Of a stretch of 33,736 nucleotides of DNA, positions 7,005 to 32,416 are shown piece after piece. The translations under genes were made by a program, and so were the position numbers. Each line of letters opens with the position of its first letter. Position 1 is the first letter of the stretch. Below the pieces are notes generated by a model that saw nothing but the letters and a program-made list of their open reading frames with translations, searched no databases and was not told the DNA's origin. This stretch comes from Folioceros fuciformis (taxonomy: Eukaryota): the NCBI GenBank assembly GCA_049999805.1, contig JBNGIO010004367.1, positions 1 through 33,736 on the forward strand. Reading direction: 5' to 3'.

Positions 7005-7981
7005 AGAGGACGTATGAGTGTGTACATACTTGAAGCTGGTGCGCGGAGCGAATCTGGTTTCCAGTTGCCTCGGTCGTGCTAGCAGGCTTCGGTCACATCG
7101 AGGAAGCCCGGCCCTGGCTCCGGTCCGGGTCCGGGTCTGGGTCCCGGCCCGACACGCAGCGCCCGCACTCGGTTCGTACCTGCGTTCGGAACTCGATAAA
7201 GTGAATATGTATGGATGTACCGCGTCCGAACAGTGACGGTAGCTCGCTCTCCCGGACGCCAAGGAAATTGGTGGCAGGGCGGGTGCCGTGCATGTGCACG
7301 ATTTCTGTACTGCGACACTGGCATGGAGGCCTGGTCAGCGCCTCCGCCGTGCGACCTGGTACGGTGGCAGGCCCGGCGCAGAACGGCCCAGAACGGGACT
7401 GGCCGGCCCCGGGACCCGGGCCCCCAGTGTCAGGCTGTGATGTCAGAATGCTGGCGTCCGGGAGAGCGAGCTCCCATGTCGACCACCTGCATTCAGGCCG
7501 CCACGGACTCGGTCTGCGGCTTCTACCTCTGCGCGCTGCCGTGCCGGCTTGCTTGCTTGCCACGGCTGTGCGAGCTCACGAATCCCGCGCCCGTGCTCGG
7601 CTGCGGCGCTGTGGAGGCGTGCCTGCGACGGCTCTCGGCGGGGAGGTGGAGGATACTGGATTCCTGCGGGAGGCGGGAAAGGGAGGGAGGAATTGGCTCG
7701 GGCCGAATGGTGTGTGCGGGCGGCGCTGCGAGGTGGCCGCCTGTGGCAGCGGCCGCCAGGAGTCTTGGAGCTGGAAGAGTAAGGTGTTTTGCGTATCCGG
7801 TTTGTCGGAAATTTGGTGTGCTTATGCTGGCTGTGGTTGGAGGATGGCGTGAGGTGGAATGTTTGGCGCTGGATGATGTTGCAGGACGCGGTGGTTGGAG
7901 GATTCGCTCGGGGGAGCTGCGCCTCGAGTGGTGTAGGTTCATCCCGTGATTCATGGTTTTGACCAAGGGAATGTACAAGGC

Positions 7982-10330
7982 ATGGCGGGGCCGAAGCGGA
8001 GGCGTGGAGTCTTCTGTGCTGGAGGCGCCCTAACTTTGATGTTCTTACTGCAAGCGTATGGATGGCTTAGTGTAGGGGAGTGTAAGGCGGTTTTGGTGGG
8101 AGGGGACTACCACTGGCGTGCTCCCCCGGAGAATGACACTGCCTTTTTCCAGGAGTGGGCCGATTCTGTCTCCCCGCTTCACGTTGGGGATGCTATAAGT
8201 AAGCTGGTCATCTGCAGAGCCTGTGCCTAGGTGATGGTATGGTTGTTTGGATCGCGGAATGTTGATATGTGTTTACTCTTTGTTTTCTCTACATGGTGAC
8301 TGAAGTTTCCTGCTGTCTGTCCTGACATGACTGCTGCGCACATTCGTGTTGCAGTCTTCGACTATGGCGCACCTTATTCGGTTTACCTTGTCGATGAGGC
8401 AGATTTCAAAAACTGCGACAGCAACCATACCTCCGAGGTTTCGCCTGGAGGAAATATTTCTGTGTTGCTCAATACTCCTGGCCTTGCCTACGTTATCGAT
8501 GGCTTGTTCTGCACCCAGGGCATGTTATTCAGTTTGCTCGTGGCTCCACTTCCTAGCGTCGACGCTGGATCCTTCCAACCCCCCAAGGCTCAAAAAATAG
8601 ATATTAGTGGACGACAATATAAGTCCGAGACTGTGATCGGAGGTATGGACGAGTCTTGTACATTGTGTAACGAAAATTTGCTGCTTCGTCGTGCAATCGT
8701 TTGTTTGATTCTTCGCTTGATTCCTGCGCAACATGACCTTTTTCTGTTTTTTTTTTTTCTGGCAATGCAGCGATAATGGGAGCGTTCGGAGCCATCTTTT
8801 TGTGTGCTCTTTCGTGCTTTATCCACCGCACTTTTTACAGAAATCGGGGTGAGCTCCCTGATTTGTCGGACATGTATAGAATGAGGGAGTCTGCTCCTCC
8901 TCCGGTGACAGTTAAATCAGAGGTCGATGGTGCCACACAAACAGGCCACACTGTGGGCTTGTCAGCCTCACGTAGCATTAGGGAAGGTCTAGGGATCGAA
9001 GGTCCAAGTCATCTTTCTCTCTCTTTTTCTATGGGAGGTGCAAAAGTGTTTTCCCTACAGGAAGTCAAGGATGCAACCAGGGAATTTGCGAAGGATTTCT
9101 GTATAGGGGAAGGGCAATATGGAAAGGTTTACAGGGGTAGGTTGTACGTGAAAGAATTACATGCGACGAGGGAGGTTGCTGTGAAGCGACCAAAATTTAG
9201 GAAAGCTTGGAAAGACTTGGATCTAATAAACTTTGAGCTAAGTGTCATGGGGGCTGTTAGTTCGAGGAACCTGGTACAGTTGCTTGGTTATTGCTATGAG
9301 CATGAAGGTGCTCCCCCTGTGTTAGTATATGAGCTTGTATCAAGAGGATCCTTGTCGGACCATCTGTTTGGTTACAGACTCGGGAGCCTCGCAAGCAGCA
9401 TACCTGACTCGTCTCAGGGGACCAAATTCCTAGGTGTGCAAGGCCTAATCGTTCCATAATTGTATATGTATTTTTCTCCTGTAATCAGGTTCTTGAGGCT
9501 GTCCTCCTGATTGGAGAATGCTGACTCAATGTTTCCATCTTTTGCCAGACTGGGACAGGAGGCTGCAGATAGCGATTGGGACTGCCAAAGGCTTGGAGTA
9601 CTTGCATACCTCTAGTCATCCTGCCCTGCTCATTCACAAGGCTGTGAATACGGGGAATATCTTACTAGACGATGAGTTCCAAGCAAAAGTGGCAGATTTT
9701 GGGCATTTCGGATCAATTCCTGGCCAGCAATCAAGCGTCAGAGGCATGTAATCTCACCCATGGAGGAGGTGGGAGTGTGAGGTCACCGCATTGATCGCTG
9801 ATAACCTGATGATGCCCGCAATGTTTTGTTTGCTGCAGGATCCAATGGCTTTGTTGACCCCTACATTGAAGGCCCGTTCACTGATCGCTCAGACATTTTT
9901 AGTTTTGGAGTGGTTCTGATGGCGCTTGTTACGTCCAAGAGGCCGTATGAACAACCATGGTGTACAAGTGACGGCAACTTTGTGGATCCCTTCTTTACGT
10001 TCATTAAGAATCACACGGTGGAGCGCATCCTGGATCCTGAACTCACTCAACGAGAGGGTAATGAGGGAATCGAAGAAATGAAGACAGTCGCAAAGGTTGG
10101 CAGTCGTATTTTTTGAAGTGTCTTCGCTTTGTGGATACTTTGGTGATGGATGCCGTTTTAAGTCCGTGAACTGAAATCGCTGAACGCGCATCGTGTAGAT
10201 CGCCGCCTCATGTATGATGAGAAGAACAGAGCACAGGCCTTCAGCGAAGGATTTAGTATTCTCGCTGGAACAAATTCAAATTGAACGACAACGGAGAATT
10301 AGGACTGATGCTAAGATAGACGCAGGGTGA
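7982..10330 (+). CDS. Phytocyanin (ENODL-like) ectodomain receptor-like kinase, copy 1; predicted pseudokinase
   Basis: Exons 7982-8198, 8355-8642, 8771-9433, 9549-9743, 9839-10095, 10199-10330. Signal peptide; plastocyanin-like domain (VLVGGDYHW...FFQEWA...VGDAIIFDY...DFKNC...FCTQGM); TM ([21 protein letters not shown]); kinase motifs [45 protein letters not shown]. Catalytic loop reads HKAVNTGN. Intron 9744-9838 needs a GC donor. A one-base shift near 10325-10327 would extend the tail to 10530. Confidence 0.85.
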
Positions 10331-10720
10331 CAAACGAGCGTCACATGGAGTACCTCTCTAGGAATTTCAAAATATGCACTGTAAATTTGGACAGAGACGG
10401 AATACGAACTTCTGGAGATGTGCACGACATAATTCGGACCTCGGCATCTCTCCGTCATGGTGAGGGACACATCATCCAATTGTACAGTCCCACTCTTTCG
10501 AACCGCCCAACCCTGGAAAAAGTGAAATAATCAAGGGTACAACTTGTCAGAGCGGAGATCTTACTCTATAGTCGTGGGCTTTGGGAATCAGAGGATCCGA
10601 GTGTGCAAATACATACCCAGTGTCTACTCAGTTAGGGCATTTGAGATAGGGCTCACTTGGCGAGGAGTCTTGGTGGTGAGTGTTTGTTGGACGGTTGAAA
10701 AATCATGTGCTGGAACCACT

Positions 10721-12054
<1,334 letters not shown>

Positions 12055-12082
12055 TCATCCATACATGTACAGCTGCGCTTCA

Positions 12083-12255
12083 CTCTTGGTCCCGTGCCTC
12101 AGAAAAGAAAGTTCCTCCTATACTTACTTTCGTCTTTCAGCTGATGGTCCTCCGGCACGCTTTCCTCTTGGTCCCCTGCCTCAGAAAAGAAAGTTCCTAT
12201 ATAGATACTTACTTTCGTCTTTCAGCTGATGGTCCTCCCGAACGCTTTCCTCTTG
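12083..12255. repeat. Tandem duplication of an ~82-85 bp unit (two copies plus a short tail) in the DIM1A/UCH divergent promoter
   Basis: ctcttggtcc(g/c)tgcctcagaaaagaaagttcct...atacttactttcgtctttcagctgatggtcctcc...acgctttc starts at 12083 and 12165; ctcttg recurs at 12250. Confidence 0.9.
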
Positions 12256-12426
12256 CGATTGAGCCCCAAATATTAGGTCTGCGCTGAAAGCGAATACTTT
12301 AGGTTTTGGGTCTGACCTCGGGCAGGTACATGGACTTGGATTTCTGAAGCTTCCGTGACGAGTGGCGACTAGCGTGCCTGAGCTGCTCGATTTTTTGAGG
12401 TCGGGGGATACCAGGCAGGGCCAACC

Positions 12427-13962
12427 ATGCAGTGGTGTACTATAGAGTCCGATCCTGGTAAATGTATGCGTAGGCGTGTGCCTTTCTCGTGGTTTTGTCT
12501 CGTTCTGTTCTGCTCTGTGGCTTACCTTTGCCTCCGGAATATTGCAGGCGTGTTCACGGAGCTTATCCAGCAGATGGAGGTGAAAGGAGTCCAGGTGAGG
12601 GGATGTGATGGGGGCGCTGGTGCAAGTGCTATGTGTCTGGTTTATCCAGTTTTCAGTCACAGATGTACCTAGGACTTCTTTTTTTCCATGCGCCCGAATG
12701 CGCATGAGACGCAGGTCTGAAGTGCAGGGGTCTACTTTGTGCCAGTTTGCTCATGACTTCTAGGCGTGTGCCAGGTTGAAGAGCTCTACAGCCTTGATCT
12801 GGACATCCTTGAAGCGCTGAGGTGAAGAATGGCTGACCTGAGCTGGATTTTTTTAATGTTAAAGTCTTGTGTTGGGATGAAATTAACGTTTCGGCTTTTT
12901 GTTAAGCAGACCCGTGTACGGACTCATTTTCCTGTTCAAATGGCGTCATGGAGAAACGGATAGTCAACCCGTTTTGCAGGAGTATAACCCTAATTTATTC
13001 TTCGCAAGTCAGGTGTGGAATCGGAATTGATGTGGATGAAGATGTTGGAACTCACTTGATTGCTTGGGGTCGAGGTGCGCTGTGGTCGAGGAAGTATTGC
13101 CTGAAGTGTGGTTGGCTTCAATTGTTCTGGGCTGCGTCGAGCATCCTTACTAAGATGTTGCTCCTGGCATGTGTTCCAGGTTATAAACAACGCTTGCGCA
13201 ACGCAGGCCATTCTGTCCATTCTTATGAATAGGCCTGAGATTGACATTGGACCTGAGTTATCTATGTTGAAGGAGTTTACGAGAGAGTTCCCCCCAGATT
13301 TGAAGGGACTCGCCATAAACAACTCGGATGCCATTCGAACGGCTCATAACAGTTTTGCAAGGCCCGAGCCGTTTGTCCCCGAAGAGCTAAAGGCAGCCGA
13401 CAAAGACGATGATGTTTATCACTTCATCAGCTACCTCCCCGTGGATGGTGTTTTGTATGAGCTGGACGGGCTTAAGGAAGGGCCCATCAGTTTAGGATCG
13501 TGTAGCGATGATGGAACTGACGATTGGTTGAAAATGGTGAAACCGGTGATTCAAGAAAGGATACACAAGTACTCTCGAAATGAGATTAGGTTCAACTTGA
13601 TGGCAGTCATCAAGAACAGGAAGGATGTCTATCTGGCCGAGATTGCAGAGTTGGAGAGGAAAAAGGAGCTGTTACTTCAGCAGGCCACCAGGGCGAATGA
13701 GTCTCACGATGTGTCTATCCTGGGTATGTCATCCATGGCACAAGTTTCCCGTGCAGTGGGAGAGGTGGAGTCCAAACTAGAGCTCTTGAATGAGAGGATC
13801 TTCGTGGAAGACGAGAAGTTCAGGAAGTGGCGGACAGAGAACATCAGGCGGAAGCATAACTACATTCCGTTTCTGTACAATTTCGTGAAGCTTTTGGCCG
13901 AAAAGAAGCAGCTCAAACCTCTGCTCGAGAAAGCTAGACAGAAGACTCAATCGTCGTCGTAG
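12427..13962 (+). CDS. UCH2: Ubiquitin C-terminal hydrolase, UCH37/UCHL5 type (plant UCH1/UCH2, peptidase C12)
   Basis: Exons 12427-12457, 12548-12594, 12775-12821, 12910-13012, 13180-13962. [43 protein letters not shown] (catalytic Cys), YHFISY (His), LYELDGL (Asp), and C-terminal [12 protein letters not shown]. Confidence 0.96.
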
Positions 13963-14724
13963 GGGACGTGCTAAGGATTTGCAGTGGGGTCCAGGAGGTC
14001 AACTGGCTGCAATGTGGGGAGGAGTGTTCATGATGCCTGGGTATCGGCGATTCGCGATAAACATCCATTGCGACTTGCCAAATGCCGTCCAAGTGCACTG
14101 AATCGTCATGCACCATGGCCTCTGTAGTTTGTCCTCTTTCTGCTAGCTACCTGCCCTCTGGCACGCTCACGTCTTACTAGGTAGCTGAATTCGCAAGGAA
14201 TGCCTAGATTTGATAACTCCGTCCACTGCGTGCTTGGAACACTCCTCGGACGCTGACGGGACCTTTTAAGGGTTTTGCAAAGTACAGGGTATCAGGGTTT
14301 ACGGAAGCTGCTTCCTTGGCATTCTCAACTCGAGCTTCGTTATCACCGCCGCGATCCCGTGGGTCGTTTTACATTCGTCTGTTCCCTGGTTCACAGCCCT
14401 TTCCCCACAAACCGTGCTCACCCACCTGAACTTGGTGCACCATCTCGACGTCAAAACGGGGTGCTCAGCGTTCACGTTAGTGAGTCCAGGCGAAATCGTT
14501 ACGCGGCTGCTGAAGGCGTGCGAAGTGTTGCTCTCCAACAAAATGAGGTGGTGGCCGTGGAGACCACACCGCGAATGCGTTGATGTCGGTTCCTGTCTGG
14601 GCACAAGAGTCACGGCAAAGTAGTCATGGACGACTGGGTGGACTCTTCCATACTATTATGTGTCCAAGCTTTGTGACATCTGTTTTCACATGCTTGACAA
14701 CCAGGCGTATTGTGTTCTACGGAG

Positions 14725-17372
14725 ATGGTGATTTCATCGTGGACAAAATGCATCCTGCTTCTTTTCAATGTTACCGTTTTCGCTGCTACCCTTTTTTCCT
14801 CCAATGCGCAAGGCAGCAGCGTCGTGCACGCTGTTGGAGGCCACCTTGGATGGACGGTGCTTGCTGGCAGAGGCTTCTACCAGAACTGGGTTGACAGCAG
14901 GAGCATCTTCGTAGGTGACATCCTCTGTAAGTAGCTTAAGAGTTCAAAGCTTGAGTGCTACTGGAAACTGCCTCTCGCTCAACCATTTAGCCTATACACA
15001 TCCCAGGCCCAGGCCTGATCAGGCCCAGGCCGGGATATGTTGAGAATTGTGCAGGGAACAGGGCTAACCCGAGGTGCCAATTCCATGCCGCAGATTTCGG
15101 GTATGACCGTACTCGCCACAGTGTTCTGCAAGTTGAAGAACAGGATTACAACTCCTGTACTATCTCAGAGCCACTCCTGTTGATGTGGTCCGGCCACGAC
15201 GGAGTCCGCCTGTTGGATTCTGCACAATACTTCTTTGTCAGTGGCACTCCCGGGGACTGTGAGGCTGGCCTCAAATTCTTCATTCGTCCGTTGCTAAGGA
15301 GGAGGCAGCAGGGCCGGGATCGGTCCTCCAGCAGAGGTAAGGACCACCTCGAGGGATTGTTCCGACACAATCATGTGACAGCATTCAGCTGCTGGCATGC
15401 GCTAATCCTCCAAAATCTGGGGTGCTGCAGGCTTAGCCTCGCTTCGAATTGAAGCCAGGATAGGCATGAGGGCCCAACCTGCCACGCCTCCTCTGCACTC
15501 CATGAATCCTCCAACTGGTCCGATGCAATCTCCAAAGCTTGGTAAACATGTACTAGACGTGCAAACCTAGAGACATTAGCATCCAAGTTCAAGCTTGTGC
15601 ATGACTTGGCATATCCATGGTTGATGTGCGATTTTAGGGGCTGTACCGTATGTCGACGGGGTCGCCTTAATGGTGGTCGGAGGACGTGAGTGCTCGCAGA
15701 ACTCCTCACTCTTAATCCAGCGATCGATGCAGGTACCAAAAGAAAGCGAGAATCTGACTTAATTTGCTGGTGGACGGTGTGATTGCAGTAATTATAGTGG
15801 TAGGGATTGCCGTTGTTGCGTTAATCCTAAACGCCCGAACACACAACATCGTCACAAAGTTGAAAGCTTCCAGTGCGGAGACCTCAGCGAACACCGGCTC
15901 CCCGGACGATCGTCTTGAACGCCACTACAAGCTCACTTCCTGCCGGTTGTACACTCTGAAGGAGCTGGAGGCTGCAACAGACAATTTTTGTGAGGCCTTG
16001 CTGCTGGGCCAAGGAGGGCACGGGACTGTGTACAAGGGAAGGCTGGAGGGCCAGGATGTGGCAGTGAAGAAGAGCATTTGCACCGTGGTGCACCCTGATA
16101 CCGTGCGCGGGAAGCCGGAAGGTGTGAGTAGTCAAATGCACGCGCATCCCCCGCGGCCAGCTCCCAGTCCCGATACTCTCGACGACTTGGCCCACAGTCA
16201 ATGCTTGAACGAGATCACTCTCCTCTCCAAGGTCCATCACCGCAACCTGGTGCGTCTGCTGGGATACTGCCTTGCTGGAGCAGACTCTCTCTTGGTGTAC
16301 GAGTTTGTCCCCAACGGCACACTGAAGGACCATCTCCATGAATCACGACATAGACCCGGGATTCCCAGTGTGAAGGCAAGTGAATTCCTTTTGCCTCTCC
16401 CGAATTACGGATGGCCATTTTGACTCCTTGGTTTGGGCCACCAGAGGTGTGCATGAACTCGGGTGGTGTCGGGTGGGATACATGTGCAGAGGGTGTGGCT
16501 AGACTGGGAGAAGCGGCTGCAAATCGCAACCGAGACAGCAGAGGCCCTGCACTATCTCCACTTTTCGGTGGCCCCTCCCGTGTACCACCGGGACGTGAAG
16601 TCCTCCAACATTCTCCTGGACTCGGACATGAGCGTGAAGCTGTCTGATTTTGGACTCTCCAAGTTGGGACAGCAGGAGGGCGGGGGAGGCCGTGTGTCAC
16701 CGTTCGGGGCCAAGGGCACGCCAGGCTACATCGACCCCGAGTACTCCAGCGGGAGGAAAGAGGTAAGGCTCCCATTCAGCTCTTGTCGCAGGTGCTTGGA
16801 TGAATCTACGCACCGGAGACTGAGAGCGTACGCGCCTGGGCATTGCAAATGGCCTGGCAGGCTACAGATAAAAGCGACGTGTATAGCTTCGGCGTCGTAC
16901 TCCTGGAGCTCATAACGGGCAAGAAGCCGGTGGACAACGCGCACGCTCCGGCCTTCTACGACCCGAATCTGGCCTCTCGCTCGATCCCCTTCATCGAAAA
17001 TGAGCACACCAACAAGATCATCGACCCGGACCTTGGAGCCGTGAATGACGTTCAAATGATGGCGTCCATCAAGAGGACGGCGAGGGTCGCGCTTGCCTGC
17101 TTGGCTGCCAGGGGCCTCAACAGGTGAAGTCGTTTGCTGCGATGAGTCCAGTCTGTCTGTGGAATCCAAGGTGTGGAATCCGTTGCGGATCTAGAGGTTT
17201 AAAACTCAAAGTGGACTGTTGCAGGCCTTCCATGGACGAAGTGCTGGAAGAGCTGCGGGGCATCAAGAGTTGCAACCGTCCACCTCTCCAACGCTTCCAG
17301 CTCCTCGGGAGTCAAGTTGAGGACGGTGATCGCCACCCTTCTCCCTTGAGCACGATGCATCGAAATGCCTAG
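14725..17372 (+). CDS. Phytocyanin (ENODL-like) ectodomain receptor-like kinase, copy 2; RD kinase, WAK/WAKL-like kinase domain
   Basis: Exons 14725-14926, 15094-15336, 15431-15541 (Pro-rich linker), 15789-16375, 16490-16762, 16861-17123, 17225-17372. Signal peptide; HAVGGHLGW...YQNWVDSRSIFVGDILYFGY..HSVLQV..DYNSC...YFFVSGTPGDCEAGLK; TM LVIIVVGIAVVALIL; GQGGHG, VAVKK, HRNLVRLLGYC, HRDVKSSNILL, DFG, GTPGYIDPEY, TDKSDVYSFG. The TM-exon acceptor is uncertain. Intron 16376-16489 is GC-AG. Confidence 0.87.
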
Positions 17373-18355
17373 CAAAATACAGGAGCTGGCATGTATCATG
17401 CAACTGCCTCTTTCATTTCTCATGTTCTTGAATCGTTGCTATCCCCGCCACAGTCATCACTTCCCACTTCTTCCAGAATAAATCATCAAAGCAGTCCACT
17501 CACCTTGTCTAGGAAACGTCTGTATGCTCGACCGGCTACAGTGCCCGCCCCTGGTCATTGAATCATTGAGCTCCCCACCACTTTCATCATTTGCTACTTG
17601 TTCCACCTAAGGTCCTTGATTCAGTGATCGCCCCAAAAGATAAGGGGGAAGGGGCCCATGGGATCACCTCCTACCAAGGAGGTCGGAGAGGACTCCAGAC
17701 CTCCTCCTGTAAGAAGGATACACATAGGTGAGAAGGAAACCCTAGAGAAGGTATGTGCATCTACCAGGGGTGCCTCGGCAGAGGAACGGGGCCTCTACAG
17801 ACGAACGAAGAACGAGGTCCTACGGTAGGACGAGAGCAGAAAGCGGTAGGAGCCCGAACGGATGTGGCATTACCCATAGACATGAGCGAGAAGAGCACAT
17901 AAAAGGCGGAGGAGATGGAAGCAAAAGTAAGTCGTACTGCCGCCTTCGTGTTCCCGAGGTGAACCAGGGAAAGGTTGCTCTTCGAATAGTTACCATGTTG
18001 CAGCGCACGGCCATTGAGGTTCGAGATTTGGTCACAGGAGCTTGTAAGAGTGGCGAGAAAAGCTGAGGAGGGGGAAGCCCAATTGAGGTACGCACACCAG
18101 GAGATCGAGGGGGTGGAGGAGCGGAGGTAAAGGAAGCCTTTGAAGACCACCAAAGAAGGACGAATTTTAGTTGAAGAGAAGTCAAGGAGCGGGCCGTGGT
18201 CACCACCAGGTGCTTGCATAGGAAGCAAGTGCCTCCACGAAATTGGAAGCAGTAGAGGCTTGCTAGAGTGAATACAGGAGGAGGAAACGTGGCAGCTTTG
18301 GCCAGTAGACAGGCTAAACGCTTGATGTAAAGTGGGTGGTGAATAAAATGTTGAC

Positions 18356-20328
18356 TCAATACTGCTTCTTGAATATAAACTCACATTCCGAGACTCCGTC
18401 TTCAGGTAAGTCTGTGCAATGAACGCCGTTTTTCACCTGAGCAAGCAAGCAGAGTGAATACGAAGCTAGCAGTGAATTCCAACCCTCCGGACAGTGAAAC
18501 CTGTACCTTGTTAGATCCAAAATGTGCTCGGAGGGTGTTGGGCCTTAAAGCCTGGGCCAATTGGGAATCTAGAGGCCCGCAAAATTCACGAAAGATTTCC
18601 ACTGGGCATACTGTCCCATCCACTTTATCAGTTATCTCTAGAGCAAAAGACGGGCCGTATGCTAGCTCGTGTGTCATAGCCTGGATCAAGACAGCGTTGC
18701 TCAAGTCACATGAAGAAATTTGCCTGCAAAAGATTCGGGCAGGAGCAGGACTTGCTGCATAGGTAGCATTCTGAGGGAGTAGAAATGTGTACGTAGTAGT
18801 CTGGAAGAACTCCTTGGTAAAGGGTATAAAACTTTGCAGTGTTTTGCCGGTTAAGGTTCACTAGTTCCATAGCGGTGATGTTGAACTTCTTCAAAATGGC
18901 ATCGATGATGATCCCCGACACACCTGGAAGAAGAACAGACCCATGATCCACAACGATGGGCGATTGAAGTCACACGCTCAATCGACAAGTAGTTACGTGG
19001 CGTAAGCCTACCATCAAGCACTGCGTGAGGTTTAATAATACACAGTGAACAGTTTTTGAGCCTTGCGCAAAACCCAAATTTTCTGCACTTGAAGAAGAAC
19101 TTAACTTCCTGCATGTGTTCTTGCCTTTAAGTTCGCGTTCAATGGTATTAAATCCCTTGTATTAACAACAAATGAGATCTTTTACATTCTAGAAGGCCAC
19201 AGCATATACCTCTCTGCCGGCTGCATAGGTATCTGCCCCATGGACAGCATTCCTCGTGCTATTTGTACCGAACAGGGCCCGCAAAGAGGCAGGAGCCTTT
19301 AGCTTTGCAATGTCCGAGCTACTTGGGCCTGTAGAATTGACAGCCTCGCGAATGACACAATTCGAAATCTTGGTAAAGACAGATCAGTCTGAAGAGGTGG
19401 CAGCAAGTCTCACCAATGAGCACTTTCCACCTTTGGACTGCATCCTCAGCAACTAACTCCATGGCAACACAAGGACCACTGGCCATCAAAGCTGTAAGTT
19501 CCCTGCCGTAGACAAGCACAATCCCCGTGTCAGGCTGGAGATGACACTCTCACACTCATGCTGACGTAGATACGCTACACTTTGGCTTCTACAAAATCAC
19601 CAACAGGAACCTTACGCAAAATAAGGCTTCTTCCTGTGCGATTTGTAGAACTCCCCTGCATCCTGCTGAGTGATTTGGCACATTCGCAACTGCTTTATGA
19701 GGAAACCGTTCTTGTAAACTGCGTCAATGATCTTTCCTATGTGATGGTAGGCATCGGGTTTTATCAGAGCTAAGGTTCTGAATTCACCCGCCAAACGAAT
19801 TTAGTACAAACACCCAATAGAGTGATCTAAAGAACGGACTCAGACCCTCTCCGAGCAAATCACTGGGCCAAAAAGTTGTTAGATGCAATAAAACCAGCAT
19901 CTGTAAAGCAGCCTACATCTCACTGTAAGTACGCCAAGCAGTTTACAGATGTGTCTAAATGACGTACGTTTCTTGTTGTGCTGCCAAATGCTTCCGAGTG
20001 AATTCATCGCCATATTCTTCCAGTACCATAGTCCTTGTGTAAACTAGAACTGTACCACCAAGATATAAATGCTCTTGATTTATGGAGGGGTAGGCAACCC
20101 TCTTGAGAAAGACTTTCTGGTTTTTTATATCATACTGCATAATGGCATAGCATCAATTATTGCTGATAGATTATCTTCTACAAAGCCCTACAGGGACAAT
20201 GAGCTGGAAGAGAAAGCATACGAGCTCAATAGATTTGTCGACAGTGTGATAGAAAAATTGGTACTTCCAATGTATTTCCGTCATAGGATCAATCCAGCGA
20301 ACAATGAAGGCATACCGAGCACCTTCGT
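18356..20328 (-). CDS. NME7: Nucleoside diphosphate kinase 7 (DM10 domain plus two NDK domains); first exon not resolved, candidate ATG at 20616
   Basis: DM10 peptides RYAFIVRWIDP...YQFFYHTVDKSIEL|YDIKNQKVFLKR...LYLGGTVLVYTR...EYGDEFTR. NDK-A: RTLALIKPDA, SGPCVAMEL, SLRALFGT, NAVHGAD. NDK-B: SLCIIKPHAV, FREFCGP, LRPNTLRAHFG, NGVHCTDLPEDG. Stop TGA at 18358-18356. Confidence 0.93.
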
Positions 20329-22116
20329 CTGAAGGTAACTTGAATAAATTTGACTATCAATATAAGAGACACAATCTGTCAGTGATTCTGTTGGTACTGA
20401 AACATTACAAAATCAAACGTCTGCAGCCACAATGTCAAAAATATGGAGCAAAAGTAATACTTTCCAGTCCTACAAACATAGCCAACAGCAGATGGAAAAT
20501 CGAACCATTGTTTCCTAGGCACTGCTGGTGTATTCCACTCAATCACAAGATAGAGCTGCCTAGTCCACATCCATTTGTAAGCAAGATCGTACGTCACAGA
20601 GCCCACCGCCAGTCATTATCCGCAAACGACTACGATTTCAAAAGACAGTCTGCACAAAGAATGCAATCGCCTCAAATGATAGAAACAAGCCTAGAGACAA
20701 GTTCAAGCCGGGTCCGCACAACCCACCCACATGACGATATCAGGAATGCCATTCAAACCATCTGACTTGCAGCTTGACCAAGGATATTAGCTCCATAACG
20801 CCTGAAGTAACAAGTTTCAGATCATGAAACCCCCCTCTTAGATCAGACCTGAACCATACACAGCCAGCGGCATCCTTACAAATCACCAGAATGTTTTCTC
20901 CTAGCAAACAGTGGCAACAGACTGCCAACCAGAGCCACATACTGTTAGAAGAAGACAGACTCTGAAAAACTTCAGGTCTGCTGCCATCATTATAGCACAG
21001 TTATGACTCGAATCCCTTCTACGTCCGAAAACACCAGAAGGCGCTCCTAAGGACTGTGCAGGTATACGAACTCACGCACCACTACCTCTCAGTCATCGTT
21101 CCACATACCAATGAAAAGGGCTGTTAATCAAGAAGAAAAGATGTGGGTAGCTACGTGATGAAATATAGAGACACCATGCGGATCAGAAAAACTATCTGGC
21201 GTCACAGCCAAAAGTGTCTGCAGGGACCGACGCAGCATCTGATATCCGAGTTACGGCCCATTTATGTGAGGCAAAGTCTAGGCCACTTAATAAATCTATA
21301 CCAGCAGCCCACGCCTTTTCTTGACCTCTTTCCCGAACTTGCAGGCAAAATGTAGAAGAGCTTGCGACGGCTAGAAATTGCCAAAGCTTAGGCAGAAGCC
21401 AGGGCACTCTTCCTGACCAAGCCCGATTTCAGTTAGCACGGGTCCCTGCAGCATTCTTTCCGCTCAGACCTTTTACTAATCCACCATCATCTCTTCATGG
21501 GTCTCATCCAATGTCCAACCACAAACCAGAAAGCACAAAAAGCCAACTCCAGGACATAGCATGATGCTGAATGCGCGGCTTGAGGTCCTGTTTCCTCCCA
21601 AGATATCTTCCAGGTAGATGCCCCGCCACTTGATCCATGCCAATATTCGACATACGCGACCCAGGACCTGCGGCCTACAGATGGCACCCCCTCAAGAGCA
21701 TCATCACAGCTCCTGCTGCCCATCAAACAGGCGTAACGCAGGCCGTGTCTCACATCCAGCCCCTGTGAACATGTACACCGTCCGACTCCGACGAGATGAG
21801 AAGCCCTTACCTATGCTCAGCGGGAGCGGCAAGACCACGGATCTCAGAGACCAAGCCCTAAGCTCAGGCCAGTCTTCCATTTCCTTCTCCATCTTGCCCC
21901 TGTCGATAGCGAAAGCACCTACTCCTATCCGACTTTGTCTAGAAGGATCTGTGCCGATATTAGCTGGGAGAAGTGCCACACTCACCGCAGTGCTACCGAG
22001 CTCACCGGCTGAACAAACGGGTCCATTGGGGACAAACCCTTAGTTTCCATCGCTAGCGTAGTTCTAGATAAAGCGAGACCGTTACTGCAACCTCCAGAGC
22101 CGGACGACGCTTCCTG

Positions 22117-22131
22117 TTAGGGTTAGGGTTT
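22117..22131 (-). promoter_or_regulatory. Telo-box (AAACCCTAA with an adjacent CCCTAA) upstream of SRP9
   Basis: ttagggttagggttt lies about 110 bp before the SRP9 ATG. Telo-boxes are typical of plant translation-machinery promoters. Confidence 0.55.
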
Positions 22132-22237
22132 ATCATTTTTTTTCTCATAACCCTCGTCTCCTCAACTACCTTCATCTGGCAGTGTTGAGTCAACGGATAC
22201 AGCTTGCCGCAGGTCCTGCGAAATTCAGAGGCATGCC

Positions 22238-22938
22238 ATGGTGTACCTAGATTCATGGGACGACTTCGAGGAGCGCGCCATCTTGTTGTTCCGTGCCGAT
22301 CCTAACACTGTATCCTACGCTGCTTCCAATTCATGTAGGAAAAGGGAATTCGTGCCAAGCAGGCGAACCTGTCGTGTTGCATGTGTGGTCTGGTTAGGTC
22401 TCCGCTCATAAACCAGGATGTGGTTGAGATCTTAACAAGAAATCAGACTCGGTACGTAATGAAGTATCGTCATTGCGATGGGAAGCTCGTGCTGAAGGTC
22501 ACTGATGATCGGGTGGTATGGCACCTTGAGTTGCACTTCTCTAGTCGTTTTTGCTATCAGCTGGTAGTTGGGATTAGGGTTGAGCTGTGACGAGGGGCTG
22601 TCGTCCCTCTCTGTCGTAGTTTCAATGGTCATTCACGAAGTGAAGTTGTGGTTTGCAGTGTCTGAAGTTCAAGACAGATCAGGCTCAAGATGTCAGGAAA
22701 ATGGAAAGGCTCAACAACATTTTCTTCACTATGATGGCACGTGGGCCTGATGGTAATTATGATTCCTCCTTCAACAACCGAATACCTACTGTATGCCCAG
22801 CTGATGGTGTACCTGCCACGAAAACTACAGTAGATCGGCTGATATGGTCTGCATGTTTCAGCTGTTGTGCCGGAGGAAGTACCAAAGGAGCAAATACAAC
22901 AGCAAGCCTCGAAGAAAGGCCGCGGCAGACGTCAATGA
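22238..22938 (+). CDS. SRP9: Signal recognition particle 9 kDa subunit
   Basis: Exons 22238-22309, 22447-22515, 22659-22752, 22862-22938: MVYLDSWDDFEERAILLFRADPNT|TRYVMKYRHCDGKLVLKVTDDRV|CLKFKTDQAQDVRKMERLNNIFFTMMARGPD|...KKGRGRRQ*. Confidence 0.97.
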
Positions 22939-23814
22939 TTTGCGCGGGATCGCACTGCAACAGTGCAGCCATTTTGGTCTGGCTTGCGACCACCTACAGC
23001 TCTACCTCACCCATGCACGGTCGAAGTCCCTCCGCCCGGAGACTGACAGCGGTGTGGTACTCCCAGCCCAGGCAGTGAGGAGCCCAGCTGATGGCCCTCA
23101 AGGCTTTCTTCTTGCCAAGGCACCCCACATTGGTAACGTGAGTGAATGAAGCTGTGGAGAAGCGGCGCAAGCTGGTCAGCTAAGCTAGGTAGATGTTGTT
23201 TTAATGAAACTTACAACCCAGGATGGAAGTCCACTCTGAGAACAAGTGCATCGGGAACTAGACGGATCCCACAGTGTCAAGATCCATTTTTGCTGCTAAT
23301 CTTCCACATTTTTGCTGCTTCGGGTTCCACAAGTCAGCGTGGAGCTCGCAGGTCGACAGTTATTAGTCCAGCAGTCTGAGAGCGCAGAATTACTCTGAAT
23401 CTTTGTGTGAAAGTCATTTCCTCTCACCCAGTCCTCCCCAGAGTTACAGAGTGTGCAAGTCATATGCATCGCATTATCCCTTGGGGACGCTACACGTAGA
23501 TGTACTGAGCTACATCCTCCATGCAAGGGGGTCCTGGCTTCTGCTGCCTCTGTCTCCTGCTGCTGTGTGGATATAACCCTTGTTGGAGGCGAATTCACTT
23601 CTTAGGTCGCTCGCTCTTCGCAGCTCAGCACAAGTGATAGTAAAAGGTATGCATGGATTCTACCTATGTACTGGCAGGCTAGTGTAGGGTAAAATGTTGT
23701 CCGATTACCATCTTAGGTCGACGCAAGGCCCTTACCAACACCTTGCCCAATGGGTGGGAGATTCGCACGGATGGGCTGCCGGCCGTGGAGTGTCGCAGGG
23801 GTCAGGAGAGATGT

Positions 23815-24126
23815 GTTGCCGGCCGCGGACTGTGGAAGGGGGGTTCGCAGGGATAGGTTGCCGGCCGCGGACTGTGGGAGGGNNNNNNNNNNNNNNNNNN
23901 NNNNNNNNNNNNNNNNNNNNNNNNNNNNNNNNNNNNNNNNNNNNNNNNNNNNNNNNNNNNNNNNNNNNNNNNNNNNNNNNNNAAGGGGGGTTCGCAGGGA
24001 TAGGTTGCCGGCCGCGGACTGTGGGAGGGGGGTTCGCAGGGATAGGTTGCCGGCCGCGGACTGTGGGGGGTCCGCAGGATTGGTTGCCGGCCGCGGACTG
24101 TGGGGGGTCCGCAGGATTGGTTGCCG
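23815..24126. repeat. G-rich minisatellite with 42-bp units followed by 37-bp variants, interrupted by an assembly gap
   Basis: Unit gttgccggccgcggactgtgg(g/a)aggggggttcgcagggatag starts at 23815, 23857 and 24004. Shorter unit gttgccggccgcggactgtggggggtccgcaggattg starts at 24046 and 24083, with a partial copy at 24120. Confidence 0.92.
23883..23982. other. Assembly gap (100 N, probably a placeholder of unknown size)
   Basis: Run of exactly 100 n inside the minisatellite. Confidence 0.99.
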
Positions 24127-24832
24127 ATGGAGGCTAGCATCTCGCGGGCTTTGCAGAAATGTCCTTGGGTCGGAGGAAAGTGCCTCGGTTGGATCCCCGA
24201 AACATCGCTTCAATCCCTCGGGACCACTATGTTACGATTCCGGATCACACCGAGACACTACCAGAGCTGGGACTGGAAGCCCGAAGAGGTGCGTGCTTTT
24301 GATGCTGGGGTCTCTTCGTTCGAGAGGATAAGACAGTCATCTCAGCTGTAATCGGAGGGGTGATTTTCAGTCGTGCTCTCATCTCCCTTGCCTTCGTCAG
24401 TCATAAATACGGACTATCCCCCGGATGCTCATCCCCAGGGTGCTTCACAAACGGCTCGTTGGTGGTCAAGATGTCCGGAGGAGCTGACACGATTCTGTGC
24501 CATTGCAAGCTTGCACGTGTGTCGTCAGTGTTCAGAAGGGAGCTTGGAGGAGCCCCGTCCTCCACAATCCATAAAGGGTAGATAGGTGCTGTATACATCA
24601 GAATCTTCGAAATTCTGGTCAGCAATGCATGCAGAGTGTGCAGACTCCGCAACTGTAAATAGCCCCACAAGCCTCGTCATGACAACAACAGTCCCGCTCT
24701 CACTCAGTTGGGAGGGCTTTGAGATCCTGCAAAAAAAAAGGATCTCGTCGCGAAAGAGTCGTGTTCTTGAAACTACACCAAGCGTTGGCTTCCTGCCCGG
24801 CTCAAGATGAAAGATCCCCCTGGTAACAACCG

Positions 24833-27572
24833 TTATCTGGGCCTCACAAGCTCTGTAGAACTTCCCGTATACGAGCTGGAAGTTGCCCTGGTTGTTGATG
24901 TTGACCCCGACTCTCCGAGCACCATGCCGTGGGCTTGCGTGTCAAGTAACGTGCTTTCACTGTCGGTGACATCAGCCCTCTGGTAAAACTCCTCAGCCCT
25001 CAGTTTGGATCCCTTGATCCCTTGCAGCATTTCCACACCTTCACTCATCGATGGTCTCAAAGCTCTTGAGGACACCAAGCACGCCACCGCAACCTGCTAC
25101 CACAAACTGTTAATCTCCATTCTGCTCTGAACTGATTTGGAGGGCTCCACACAACTGTATGTAATCAAAGACCGACTCACCTGTGCAACTGCCTCAACTG
25201 ACTGGAGGTCATCTCCTGCGAGCGAGGACGATATATGCGTGTCAATGATTTCACGGACCCTCCCACTCTTTATCAAAGGCATTGAGGACAGAGCAAGGTT
25301 CTGCTCCGCATCCGGTTTGGAAAGGTCAATCGGCTTCTTGGATGTGATCAACTCGAGGAGCACAACCCCAAAGCTGTACACATCTGTTTTATCGGTGAGC
25401 TGGAAGTTGTGGAAATATTCGGGATCCAGATAGCCAGGGGTTCCCTTCACACCTGTGGACACGTGTGTGGCTTCCAAATCCACCAGCTTAGAAAGCCCGA
25501 AGTCCGCAACTTTGGCGTTGAAGTTATGGTCCAATAGGATATTGGCAGACTTCACATCTCGATGGAAGATGGGTGGTGTTGCCTGTACATGCAAGTACTT
25601 CAGTGCCTCAGCTGTTTGAAGAGCGATCCTGAACCTTGTACTCCAGTCAAGCCTTGTGCTGAAGCCCTTGTGTGATGTGGATAGGTGATCCTGCAAAGCT
25701 CCATTGGGTACGAACTCGTACACCAGCAGCGGAAATGTCCACCTCGATGCAGCACCCCAAAAGCTTGACAAGGTTCCTGTTGTTCACTTGCGAGAGGATG
25801 TCCACCTCGTTCACAAATGAGTCCACATCATTAGCATGCTTTGCCATTTTAATGGCCACAATTTGGCCATTATCCAGCTTGCCTCTGTACACAGTGCCAA
25901 ACCCTCCACTCCCAACCTGGTGGTCTGCAGAGAACCCGGTTGTTGCTCGCTCCAGCTCAGCGTAGGAGAAAATGGTGCTTGCTGCAAGTCGAGTGGCATT
26001 CCCTTTCAAAATGCTATTGATGGCAGCCGAGGCTTGATCAGACCTCCCCAACCCAACAATACGCAAAGCAAACGGTCGTTCTTGATCTTCCCCTGTGGAT
26101 TCAGATCCATGCTGCCGCCGGCAGTACAGAAACCCTGTAACAGCTATTACAGCAGCAATGGAGACGACGACGGCAGGCACTACTGCCGCTGCACCACCAC
26201 AACAAATCGCCTTACATCAGTTACCAGCGTTTATAGTACTCCACACCAGAAAAAACCTTGACAGCAAGCAACAGCGATTTACCTGCCACCGGGAAGTTCT
26301 TCCCACCCCGACTATTCCCTGCAAAGCCCAATCCACTTTTAGAGGGTGTTACAGTACAATACATGACCGAGCAGGTAGTCCGACGCACCGATCAGCACAC
26401 GGAGGCTAGCGTGCCAAGGCAAAGCTGAAGCGGTTCTAACCAAGCAAGGGTGTACATGACCAAGCGATTCTTCATTGAAATACCGATCTAAGCCATGGTC
26501 AACAATGCTCGAGGAAAACCTACCCACTTCCACACTCAGCTTCATGTTGTTTACGGCACAGTTGTTCCCAATTCCATCAATGAAATAGTTTACCCCTTTA
26601 GCAAGAGGCACACCTCTGTTCGGGTCGTTGTACTTAGCCAGGGGTCTGGAGGGCACTTGGCACCTATTGAAATCAGATTCGTTCACTTGCACCACGTTGT
26701 GTTGGTCCTTAACGTAATCGAAGACTCGATGGAATGCCAAAAAAAAAACAAGAGTCAGGCGAGAACGAGGCTCACGGCACCAGGAGCGACAAATGTGAAC
26801 AACTTGTGCTTGTTGGGCGACAACAAATCCAACCATTCATACCAAGCACACTGCCGTTGTGAAAAGGAAATCCCTTCAACAGATCCTTGTAGAAGTTGGC
26901 ATTGGTCTGCGGCGCCCATGGAATCTGCAAACTGAAGACCTGCCTGGGCGTTCCGGAATCCTCACCGGGAGCGGAACCAAGAGCGGGATCGGGATCGGGA
27001 CCGGGACCGGGAGCTCTCTGACCCGAAGGAGACAGAGGCGGAGGAGGGGAATCCTCAGCGAAGACGGTGATGGAAAACGCCATCCCCTGCTGGCAGTCTA
27101 CACTGATGTCTGTACTGAGGCCACTGCTGGTGAAGTAGTACGTGCCTGCGGCCACCATATACACCAAGGAGGCGCCTCCATCGATATAGGAAGCCAGTGA
27201 TGAGACATTGCAGTTGTTCAGGTCCTCAAATAACCAAACCTGCGTCACGTCATGGACGGTGGCATCGTACGTGAAGACTGCAGCCATGGCAACAGCTTGT
27301 CAGACACGGACATCGAAACGATCCAACAATCACAGGCTGCGAGCAGAAACCTGAACAGATTTCTCACATAGAGTGTCGTTGATGGACAGCGTCAATCTGT
27401 CAGCCCAGCGCTGGTAGAACCACAGGTCTTGCTGAGGAGCCCAATTTTTTTGGGCGCCTCCGATGGCCCCGACATTATACACCAGCTGGGCTTCACCAAC
27501 GGGGGTGACACCCAGCATGACACCCAGCAACGAGAGTACCATAGAAATGCAGGTGATCGTCGACGAGTCCAT
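24833..27572 (-). CDS. Double-phytocyanin ectodomain receptor-like kinase, copy 3; RD WAK/WAKL-like kinase with a +1 frameshift at 25733-25735 (sequencing error or recent pseudogene)
   Basis: Exons 27572-27368, 27277-26843, 26724-26524, 26318-26283 (36-nt microexon), 26188-25181, 25093-24833. Signal peptide; domain 1 VYNVG...FYQRWA...NDTLFFTY..HDV..NNC..YYFTS..DCQQGM; Pro-rich spacer; domain 2 W..FYKD..GSVLVFDY..HNVVQVNESDFNRC..NYFID..NCAVNNMKL; TM; GSGGFG, VAIK, FVNEV, HRDVKSANILL, DFG, GTPGYLDPEY. Confidence 0.85.
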
Positions 27573-27914
27573 CTCTCTGGCGATGCCGTGCCTCTTCCAC
27601 CTGAAACTTAACAACTATCTGGACCCTTGAGGGTGTTTAGGGCGATCGACTTCGAGAAGCCGGCCTCGCAAACGCGCTCGGGAAGTCAGACCCACGTTCT
27701 GGCTCCCCCACGAGGACGGCAGAAGCGCGTCCCAACACTTGAAGTTAAAGATGGCCGACAATATACAGCAATTCCGTGTTTCGCACCTTGGCAGAACTCT
27801 TCAACGTCAGGAGCCAGTAAGTAATGCCGGAATGGAAGTTCCGCCGGCTTGGGGCCCGGCGGATAGTATCAACAGGCTCTGCCGACCAAAAAACATTGTA
27901 GAATAATGAAGACG

Positions 27915-30187: not shown

Positions 30188-31909
30188 TCAGAATTCTAGA
30201 AGAACGACATTCTTGATGTCTGGGAACTTGTCCTTGATGGCAGCTTGGATGCCCATACCAATGGGTGCAGGGCCTAGGTACTTGACCCTGCAATCTCCAC
30301 TTCCAGCGCATACGGAGACCACTTCGACTGCCCCACCGTAGTTGAGGATGGCTGGCTTGAGAATATCAAGATGAGAGTTCACCGCCTGCAAAAATGGAGA
30401 AACACACATCAAAAACACTGCAGTTCAACCCAGGATCCTGGAACACGCTAGGGTCTCGTGCAGAGACCGCTTCACATACCGCAATAGTTGCTCCCAGTTC
30501 TTGCCGGTCAACTTGGACAACCTCCTTGATTGCATCCCCAAACTTCTCCAGCAGCACTCTCTCGATCCCCATCTTCATTGTGGAGGTAGAGCTGGGGCAG
30601 GTCCCGCATGCCCCTGTACAATTTGAGCTTACAAACGTCAATGGAGAAACTGCCCCAATCTCTGCCACTGCAGCAACCTAGGAAAAACTACAACCCTTGA
30701 CAACTATTACGGTATTCATCCGCTTCAAGCCTGCAGAACTTGCAAACTCTTTGTTCAAAGCCTTGCATGCCAGCAAGACCCAAGACGGTACTACCAACCT
30801 TGAAGCCGCAGTGACACGATGCCATTGCTCACATCCACTACCTCCACATTACCACCATCCGCTATCAGATACGGCCTGACATCATTCAGCACCAAGTCCA
30901 CGTTCTCCTTCGTGAATTCGTATGTCTGGGCTGAGTACAGGCCACCAGCGACAGCGGAGTTTGCGAATGGACTAACAACCGATGCGGGCTTTGCCTCCTC
31001 CTTGGCATTAGCATTCTTGGACACAGCACCTTCAAAACTCTCCTTCGTCTGCCCATCGATCACACTGCTCCAGTCATCCCCTTCGGTAGCTTGAAGCAGC
31101 TTCAACCGACGGGTCCTGGAGTCCTCGTCCTCACCTTCCACCTCGTCGTACAAGTTTTCCCCCATAGCCTTCCTCATCTTTAGCTTCTTCTCCTCGTACT
31201 CTTTCCTCTCCTGCTCAGTCATGAGCCCCAGAGGCACACCCGCACCCGTTCCGTCCCACACATCTGCATCCACGGAGTTCCCAGCAGGAAAAATATCCAA
31301 CACATCCAGCCACCGCTGCTTCTCCTCCTCTAACCTAGCCCTGGTCACCAGCGAAGCCTGGGTATACAGCTTCACCTTCACAGAAACACATTTCACATCC
31401 CCAACCCTACTCCGGTGGCCCTTCAGCGACAGGATGACATTCCTCGAGTACCCAACATACTGCACCACCCCATCTCCAGCGAGCACAGCATAGACTCCCG
31501 CAAATTTGAACGCCTCCCTGGCACCCACATAAGTCTCAAATCCAACCACGGAGGTCCCATCATCCTCTTCCCCTCTACCTGTAAACTCCTTTCCCTGAGA
31601 GCTGTGGATATCCGCCCCGCCCTCTCCGTACAGGAACCCGTGCAGCCCCTTGTGCCCCTCAGGAACCGTGTCATCTGTAACGATGCCCGACAGTGAGCTC
31701 AGATTCTCCACATCCGCCGACGCCCCCGGGATTCCTGAAGCGCTCGTTTTCCCCCGAGCCCAAATCCTTACCCCATGGCTGCGGAGAGCGAATACGCCTT
31801 CAGAGAAAGTCGAGTAGCCAGGCCTCGAGCTGCGGGCCGAGGAGGTGGGGAGCAGGCTTGTGGTGCCGCGAGAAGATGCCTGCAGAGTCCGGTGCATCAA
31901 ACTCTCCAT
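30188..31909 (-). CDS. NFU1: Plastid NifU-like Fe-S carrier NFU1 with an N-terminal GIY-YIG-like domain
   Basis: Exons 31909-30799, 30613-30480, 30385-30188. Ser/Arg-rich transit peptide; AGVYAVLAGDGVVQYVGYSRNV...PAGN domain; NFU domain ENVDLVLNDVRPYLIADGGNVEVV...[30 protein letters not shown] (CxxC); degenerate second NFU domain VNSHLDILKPAILNYGG...YLGPAPIGMGIQAAIKDKFPDI. Confidence 0.93.
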
Positions 31910-32416
31910 CGTGGGGACTTCAGGAAGGCCAGTCGTTAGACCACCATGTCTTGCAGCAACATTTCCTCAACAGATTCGTCTTTGATCCAGAACCAGATCC
32001 TCCGTCTCTGAAGCCAAAACTGCCAAGTATGAAAAGTCGGGAGACGCAGAGCATCTGCCTGGCAATCGGGCCAACCAATCACAGCCTACCTTCCCAGTTT
32101 TATCCAGTCAACGCCTTCCCCTCTGGCAAAAGAAGGCCAACAACCTAGCAACGGTGTACAACTAATGCGTGGAATAGAATTTCAGGTGCAATATGATTCA
32201 TTAGTGAGTGTAATTGGTTATGGCGGATTGGTCAAGTGCTGTCCTGTTCCGCCGAAGATCTCTCACGGGAATGAAGCAAGGAGATGCAGGCCACGCTGGG
32301 CTAAATTGATTTACATACACGGTTGCCCCGCTCCCGCATCAGATTCGTCGCCGGCGACAGGCGGCATATGCTTGCCTTCATACTTTACAGGAAAAGGAAA
32401 GGGGATCCAGGGGTCT

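Follow-up and report, generated by a model that had tools for sequence, protein, structure and literature searches.

The window analysed here is a 33,736-nt stretch of DNA from Folioceros fuciformis (GenBank assembly GCA_049999805.1, contig JBNGIO010004367.1, positions 1 to 33,736 of the forward strand). The DNA is plant-like and eukaryotic, with short introns throughout. It carries three genes for receptor-like kinases (RLKs), numbered 1 to 3 by position, whose ectodomains are built from plastocyanin-like (phytocyanin) domains.

Receptors of this kind are known to databases and surveys, without functional characterisation. RLPredictiOme reports 12 'Plastocyanin-like-RLK' in 80 Phytozome species (PMC9603095), the metaRLK preprint includes Cu_bind_like among RLK ectodomains, as one unreported in the RLK literature (10.1101/2023.12.21.572927), and the accessible portion of a survey of arabinogalactan proteins makes no mention of a phytocyanin-kinase fusion (PMC5266747). 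Full-text literature searches found no functional study of the phytocyanin-kinase architecture. A sequence-only reading of this DNA, made before any database search, had called the architecture atypical, suspecting that domain surveys might already hold it and knowing of no functionally characterised family. The suspicion was right, as was the view that functional work is lacking. The architecture is atypical but not new, annotated proteomes and two surveys (RLPredictiOme and metaRLK) already holding it.

Domain architecture and transcripts

Pfam models were searched against 22 stop-to-stop open reading frame (ORF) pieces from the three loci. Cu_bind_like (PF02298, gathering score 20.8 bits) passed its gathering score in four of these, with scores (Table 1) that rest on the second-exon half of each domain only; Pkinase or PK_Tyr_Ser-Thr matched eight pieces, and the remaining ten had no match. 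The Cu_bind_like pieces lie 5′ of the kinase pieces, on the same strand, in every locus. The exon models open with ATG and close with a stop codon at the ends listed in Table 1, which are those of the sequence-only reading. Its order of signal peptide, plastocyanin-like domain(s), transmembrane (TM) helix and kinase is also recovered in each gene when Pfam and hydropathy are applied to these models, and all three components of the Pfam check that it had recommended (PF02298, TM helix and Pkinase) are present in every gene. Genes 1 and 2 have one plastocyanin-like domain each and gene 3 has two (D1 and D2).

Two intron positions are shared. A phase-1 intron splits all four domains at one position, just past a GDxL/NDTL motif, and all three genes have a further phase-1 intron where the TM helix begins. 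Between ectodomain and kinase each protein has one strong hydrophobic 19-mer, with Kyte-Doolittle values of 2.26, 2.46 and 2.78 for genes 1, 2 and 3. N-terminal hydrophobic stretches are clear in genes 2 and 3, while the leader of gene 1, judged by eye, is weaker. In none of the gene models do the ectodomain exons contain a stop or a glycosylphosphatidylinositol (GPI)-type tail ahead of the splice donor. The kinase is of the RLK/Pelle type in all three genes, by Pfam kinase matches and by its nesting among plant RLKs in the tree described below.

Transcript evidence comes from public sequencing runs. Nine are listed, none of them recorded as RNA, and four were aligned to 7900-27700. Run X3 is of another sample and year than X1, the probable source run of the assembly, and its 'RNA?' label was guessed; contigs of X3 contain GT-AG joints and those of the DNA run X1 do not. 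Runs X4 and X5 cover only 10.5-12.5 kb, a methylase gene, and are uninformative on the three receptor genes. A single X3 contig of 2571 nt, starting at least 555 nt upstream of position 7900, holds all five gene 1 introns exactly as modelled, including the GC-AG intron 9744-9838. For gene 3, at least three of the five introns were seen among the 15 of 28 X3 joints listed (25093/25181, 26188/26283 and 26318/26524), and one X3 contig runs from the D2 exon through a mini-exon of 36 nt into the TM/kinase exon. When asked whether ectodomain and kinase belong to one transcript or to two genes, the spliced X3 contigs therefore answer for genes 1 and 3, where they join the two parts. The earlier claim that each gene splices in frame stands for gene 1, with its five introns on one transcript contig, and fails for gene 3: its spliced coding sequence (CDS) is 2146 nt, with a remainder of 1, and exon 5 contains a +1 frameshift.

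Copper site, relatives and kinase phylogeny

Against solved phytocyanins, E values of 3e-9 to 2e-5 were obtained for the gene 2 domain and gene 3 D2, and weak alignments for the gene 1 domain and gene 3 D1 (Table 1). These comparisons used the exon-encoded C-terminal halves of the domains. The predicted fold family is settled by the profile and PDB sequence matches together.

The four window domains were then aligned with D1 and D2 of a fern protein (P0063) and of a liverwort protein (P0066), giving eight domains in all. The alignment columns were computed, and the ligand residues assigned to them are those we take to bind copper in solved phytocyanins. In the window domains the ligand-Cys column (YFIC/FLC) holds V or D, and the second ligand-His column (GHC) holds D, N or a gap. 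Both ligands are absent from 8/8 domains; the first His is kept in 7/8, gene 1 having Tyr, and the structural Cys pair in 8/8. The axial column holds Met in gene 1, gene 3 D1 and gene 3 D2, and Leu in gene 2. Across species D1 pairs with D1 (32-38% identity) and D2 with D2 (28-35%); with this pairing and the ligand loss in all eight domains, loss of the copper site predates the split of the lineages. Because the Cys and second His ligands are lost a type-1 site cannot form, and we infer that the ectodomains are early nodulin-like (ENODL)-type domains unable to hold type-1 copper, which would serve as recognition modules rather than as copper sensors.

Relatives were sought with the large kinase exon of gene 3, and the best 120 of 7963 matches were listed. 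All of these are plant RLKs and at least four carry PF02298, at 60-64% identity over 79-96% of the query: P0053 from Adiantum capillus-veneris, P0063 from Adiantum nelumboides, and P0066 and P0114 from Calypogeia fissa. In a Pfam scan of five proteins, two Cu_bind_like stretches and a kinase were found in P0053, P0063 and P0066; P0114 has one such stretch, and the partial P0102 has none. P0053 (1057 aa) has an extra N-terminal ~380 aa with a zf-C17orf113 match and is probably a merged gene model. Over 276-304 aa the ectodomain of gene 3 aligns colinearly with these fern and liverwort proteins, at 29-32% identity, and its kinase is 58-63% identical to theirs. The kinases of genes 1 and 2 share 34-45% identity with the fern and liverwort kinases, and 32-45% with each other and gene 3, so that the description of the three genes as highly diverged was apt. 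In the ESM Atlas a Streptophyta cluster of 65 members has Pkinase in 100% and Cu_bind_like in 80%.

The sequence-only reading had taken the three genes for a lineage-specific expansion. This is contradicted by gene 3, which is colinear in both ectodomain and kinase with proteins from the liverwort Calypogeia and from two species of the fern Adiantum; because of this colinearity the family is old, and the three window genes are old, unequal paralogues. Their domain order is that of the catalogued Cu_bind_like RLKs (RLPredictiOme, metaRLK and the four fern and liverwort proteins). Gene 3 is colinear with the two-domain fern and liverwort proteins and falls inside their kinase clade, whereas a single domain and far more diverged kinases set genes 1 and 2 apart. 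The catalytic Asp is missing from gene 1, and gene 3 carries a frameshift here. The surveys, in the portions accessible, offer counts or a mention, without anatomy or function.

Searches with ectodomain sequence returned less. A word-indexed search with the gene 3 D2 exon, restricted to 'longer' lengths, gave 261 candidates of which none scored, and one with P0066 residues 25-330 recovered, out of 1340 candidates, just P0066 and P0114; these near-empty results reflect divergence and the limits of the index, not absence. In full HMMER, the ectodomain exon of gene 2 gave 402 matches at E <= 0.001, the best 150 of which are 76-541 aa long. Twelve of those 150 were scanned, and all twelve had Cu_bind_like and none a kinase; they are kinase-less multi-phytocyanin proteins, and no RLK relative was recovered among them.

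A quick maximum-likelihood tree was built from 76 kinase domains, labelled from source names and Pfam lists rather than from a curated reference set. Gene 3 lies in an eight-row clade with the fern and liverwort proteins, with a Shimodaira-Hasegawa-like approximate likelihood ratio test (SH-aLRT) value of 96. A weakly supported set of 30 rows (SH-aLRT 81) unites this clade with gene 2 and a clade of 21 rows of the WAK (wall-associated kinase) type; the eight-row clade and gene 2 stay outside the WAK clade itself. Gene 1 is a long branch without clear placement. A tree constrained to hold all ten such kinases together was 5.49 log-likelihood units better than the free search, and the approximately unbiased test gave p-AU 0.649; a single origin of the ten kinases is thus not rejected, and is not proven. 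Rows with malectin-like ectodomains lie outside the WAK-containing set, three of the four in the other half of the tree. Three rows labelled CrRLK1L-1 at source have no malectin-like domains and nest in the WAK-type clade, and a verified FERONIA sequence was not among the rows. The tree suggests, with weak support, that the window kinases are nearest to WAK-type kinases.

Individual genes and their neighbours

Gene 1 retains the Gly-loop, VAVK and DFG motifs. Its catalytic loop reads HKAVN, the catalytic Asp being replaced by Ala and the Lys by Asn, and because the Asp is missing its product is probably a pseudokinase. Despite this loop the gene is transcribed and spliced correctly. Its fourth intron (9744-9838) is of the GC-AG type, with a GC donor, the splice being confirmed by the transcript contig. 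The plastocyanin-like domain has lost all three of the ligands other than the axial one (first His to Tyr, Cys to Asp, second His absent), and only one 19-mer in the protein reaches a Kyte-Doolittle value of 1.6 or more (2.26, from residue 166).

Gene 2 has a single TM helix and intact kinase motifs (HRDVK, DFG and GTPGYIDP). The linker exon 15431-15541 is a guess in the model; omitting it keeps the gene in frame as well, since the two donors and the acceptor all have phase 1. A Pro-rich insert of ~30 aa (16085-16205) lies in the kinase after the VAVKK strand and before the alpha-C region, and is absent from the fern and liverwort proteins. An intron at ~16122-16198, in this part of the N-lobe, was considered and rejected: the candidate donor and acceptor break the frame, and the segment is read as an insert.

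In gene 3 a signal peptide is followed by two plastocyanin-like domains, a TM helix and a kinase that retains every motif; its kinase piece scores 104.5 bits in Pfam. A Pro-rich linker including SPPPP joins D1 and D2. A contig found in both X1 and X3 matches the gene 3 kinase over 25483-25732 at 90% identity or more and departs from it on both sides; upstream it encodes another LLGCC... peptide. Since this contig diverges on both sides, there is at least one close gene 3 paralogue elsewhere in the genome. The edge of the match at 25732 is 1-4 nt from the gene 3 frameshift, and might be the edge of a gene-conversion tract.

The receptor genes had been described as interleaved with housekeeping genes, and an rRNA adenine dimethylase and a ubiquitin C-terminal hydrolase (UCH) deubiquitinase do sit between genes 1 and 2. 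The former is covered at high depth by X3, X4 and X5, and the latter has four spliced joints in X3. Between genes 2 and 3, the interval 19968-23866 has X3 contigs, three GT-AG joints (22309-22861) and long minus-strand contigs, and so contains transcribed genes; its ORFs of at least 75 aa are without any Pfam match.

Table 1. Features of the window, and alignments of its plastocyanin-like domains to solved phytocyanins
Feature	Position	Strand	Basis or detail
Gene 1 CDS, 583 aa	7982..10330	+	exon model and transcript contig
Gene 1 exons	7982-8198, 8355-8642, 8771-9433, 9549-9743, 9839-10095, 10199-10330	+	
Gene 1 plastocyanin-like domain	8084..8542	+	phase-1 intron 8199-8354 inside; Pfam PF02298
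Gene 1 Cu_bind_like piece	8300-8776	+	Pfam PF02298, 23.4 bits
Gene 1 TM helix	8633..8823	+	phase-1 intron 8643-8770 at helix start
Gene 1 catalytic loop HKAVN (expected HRDxK)	9635..9649	+	motif scan of spliced protein
rRNA adenine dimethylase (DIM1-like)	10616-12054	-	Pfam RrnaAD on two ORF pieces
Ubiquitin C-terminal hydrolase, family 1, UCH_C tail	12456-13962	+	Pfam
Gene 2 CDS, 606 aa	14725..17372	+	exon model and Pfam
Gene 2 exons	14725-14926, 15094-15336, 15431-15541, 15789-16369, 16490-16762, 16861-17123, 17225-17372	+	
Gene 2 Cu_bind_like piece	14991-15452	+	Pfam PF02298, 45.8 bits
Assembly gap, 100 N	23883-23982		
Gene 3	24833..27572	-	exon model, Pfam, transcript joints
Gene 3 exons	27572-27368, 27277-26843, 26724-26524, 26318-26283, 26188-25181, 25093-24833	-	
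Gene 3 +1 frameshift, exon 5	25733..25736	-	CDS length; break codon at 25736
Gene 3 D2 Cu_bind_like piece	26339-26836	-	Pfam PF02298, 44.5 bits
Gene 3 D1 Cu_bind_like piece	26772-27299	-	Pfam PF02298, 25.3 bits
NifU-like domain gene	30366-31966	-	PF01106 on two ORF pieces
Gene 2 domain vs mavicyanin 1ws7			E 3.1e-9; alignment to solved phytocyanin
Gene 2 domain vs cucumber basic protein 2cbp			E 1.5e-5
Gene 2 domain vs plantacyanin 1f56			E 5e-5
Gene 3 D2 vs plantacyanin 1f56			E 1.2e-6
Gene 1 domain vs mavicyanin 1ws7			E 0.055 (weak)
Gene 3 D1 vs mavicyanin 1ws7			E 0.044 (weak)

Possible role of the receptors

ENODLs, the subclass of phytocyanins that lacks copper, are small proteins, GPI-anchored or secreted, with no cytoplasmic domain. 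The window genes resemble them in having plastocyanin-like domains that lack the copper ligands and keep the disulfide Cys pair (8/8 domains), and gene 3 also in its Pro-rich region after the domain; they differ in continuing from the domain into a TM helix and a kinase, on one transcript in genes 1 and 3. WAK and WAK-like kinases form the nearest kinase clade in our sample (SH-aLRT 81, which is weak, and without a named reference set), whereas neither GUB_WAK_bind nor EGF was matched by any of the 22 ORF pieces. Animal ephrins offer an analogy only. The receptor-binding domain of an ephrin is described as a cupredoxin that has lost copper binding (PMC6485061); tethered to the membrane, it serves recognition in kinase signalling. 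Ephrins are, however, ligands of a separate receptor tyrosine kinase without common descent with plant RLKs, and here the module is fused to the kinase.

We think it probable, taking the statement as a whole, that the three genes belong to an old land-plant RLK family with one or two copper-less ENODL-type cupredoxin domains, which would act as a recognition ectodomain relaying to a WAK-like kinase. Its parts differ in strength: we are highly confident of the architecture and the family membership, and hold the recognition mechanism, drawn by analogy, only tentatively. In such receptors the ENODL-type domain or domains would replace the usual leucine-rich repeat, lectin or WAK ectodomain. The copper-less ectodomain would present a surface for recognition of protein or glycan at the interface of wall and membrane, as in GPI-anchored ENODLs and animal ephrins, and engagement of a ligand would be relayed through the WAK-like kinase; the Pro-rich linker of gene 3 may be glycosylated. 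By its intact motifs gene 2 would supply a catalytically competent kinase, and gene 1 probably acts as a partner or scaffold lacking kinase activity. The conserved orthologue is gene 3, which in this accession would be either a truncated receptor (ectodomain, TM helix and partial N-lobe) or a very recently inactivated gene.

Phytocyanins are usually encoded by small, separate genes, and no gene 2 junction is among the 15 of 28 X3 joints listed, which would fit gene models that had wrongly fused neighbouring phytocyanin and kinase genes. For genes 1 and 3 this is already refuted, the exons of gene 1 all being joined on one transcript contig and gene 3 D2 being joined to the TM/kinase exon on another. 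Independent annotations of ferns and a liverwort show fused proteins of this kind, and no stop or GPI-type tail ends the ectodomain exons ahead of a splice donor, so that for the locus as a whole we give artefact almost no credence. Sensing of copper or redox state, with metal occupancy of Cu_bind_like gating the kinase, is hardly more credible. It draws on the membership of Cu_bind_like in a copper-protein family, on the metaRLK preprint, which places this domain under 'metal binding domains', and on the first His kept in 7/8 domains and the axial Met of gene 1 and of gene 3 D1 and D2. Against it, the Cys thiolate and the second His are replaced in all eight domains, from three plant lineages, which makes the 'metal binding' assignment of the preprint an unlikely one for these proteins. 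A third alternative, in line with the sequence-only reading, takes the fusion for the angiosperm ENODL-FERONIA pair in hard-wired form, a 'Rosetta stone' in which the fused kinase would stand for the CrRLK1L partner and the fusion would predict the partnership. A review citing Hou et al. 2016 states that ENODL14/15 interact directly with FERONIA (PMC6726743), and the window ectodomains are likewise ENODL-type modules associated with an RLK. FERONIA and its ENODLs are two separate proteins, however, and no malectin-like domain (PF12819) was matched in the 22 ORF pieces of the three genes. The window kinases are moreover not placed with the malectin-like-ectodomain rows and group with WAK-type kinases, though with weak support and in a tree whose rows include no verified FERONIA. 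We consider this version improbable.

A further alternative concerns gene 3 alone: its frameshift would reflect an error in the sequence, or else a rare allele, and the plant would normally make a full-length receptor of ~714 aa. The break, which coincides with a short T run, separates ...LLGCCIEVD from (F)PLLVYEF. As assembled, the frame meets a stop 29 codons past the break, inside the kinase N-lobe, while the alternative frame after the break is open for 272 codons, with HRDVKSANIL, DFG and GTPGYLDP intact and 58-63% identity to orthologues; the gene is also transcribed and spliced. On the other side, contigs of reads from X1, a run that may itself underlie the assembly, span the site with 0 gaps. 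Neither inserted nor deleted letters are listed for X1 or for the independent X3, whose cover of the exact site is not visible. An error or rare allele is possible, and we lean towards a real break. A short intron rescuing the frame was rejected, the alignment of homologues being continuous over the break and leaving only ~23 nt.

Several points weigh against our preferred reading of the genes as copper-less recognition receptors. Its proposed mechanism rests on analogy. Gene 3, the best-conserved member, may make no full-length receptor here, and the splicing of gene 2 is a prediction, none of its six introns being among the 15 of 28 X3 joints listed. Signal peptides were judged from hydropathy and charge only. 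That the ectodomains of genes 1 and 2 share their origin with the gene 3 ectodomain is argued from intron positions and an unrejected kinase clade, not from strong sequence signal, and the affinity to WAK kinases is weakly supported (SH-aLRT 81), with gene 1 on a long branch.

A broader scenario is speculative. An RLK with two ENODL domains and a WAK-type kinase could have arisen in the ancestor of land plants, persisted in bryophytes and ferns, and been lost, or split into an ENODL and a kinase partner, in seed plants. It would point to a signalling axis from ENODL to WAK-type kinase, in cell-wall or cell-cell recognition, with kinase-dead gene 1 and active gene 2 as a receptor/co-receptor pair.

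The textbook list of plant RLK types has no place for cupredoxin-fold ectodomains, and this locus shows, with transcript support, how such receptors are built. A family already catalogued is defined more sharply here, and not newly discovered. Loss of the copper site through the family argues against the published suggestion of metal sensing and favours a recognition role like that of ENODLs and ephrins. Because colinear proteins occur in liverworts and ferns, the family could be approached by genetics in transformable non-seed plants, and these receptors may reveal what ENODL-type domains bind.

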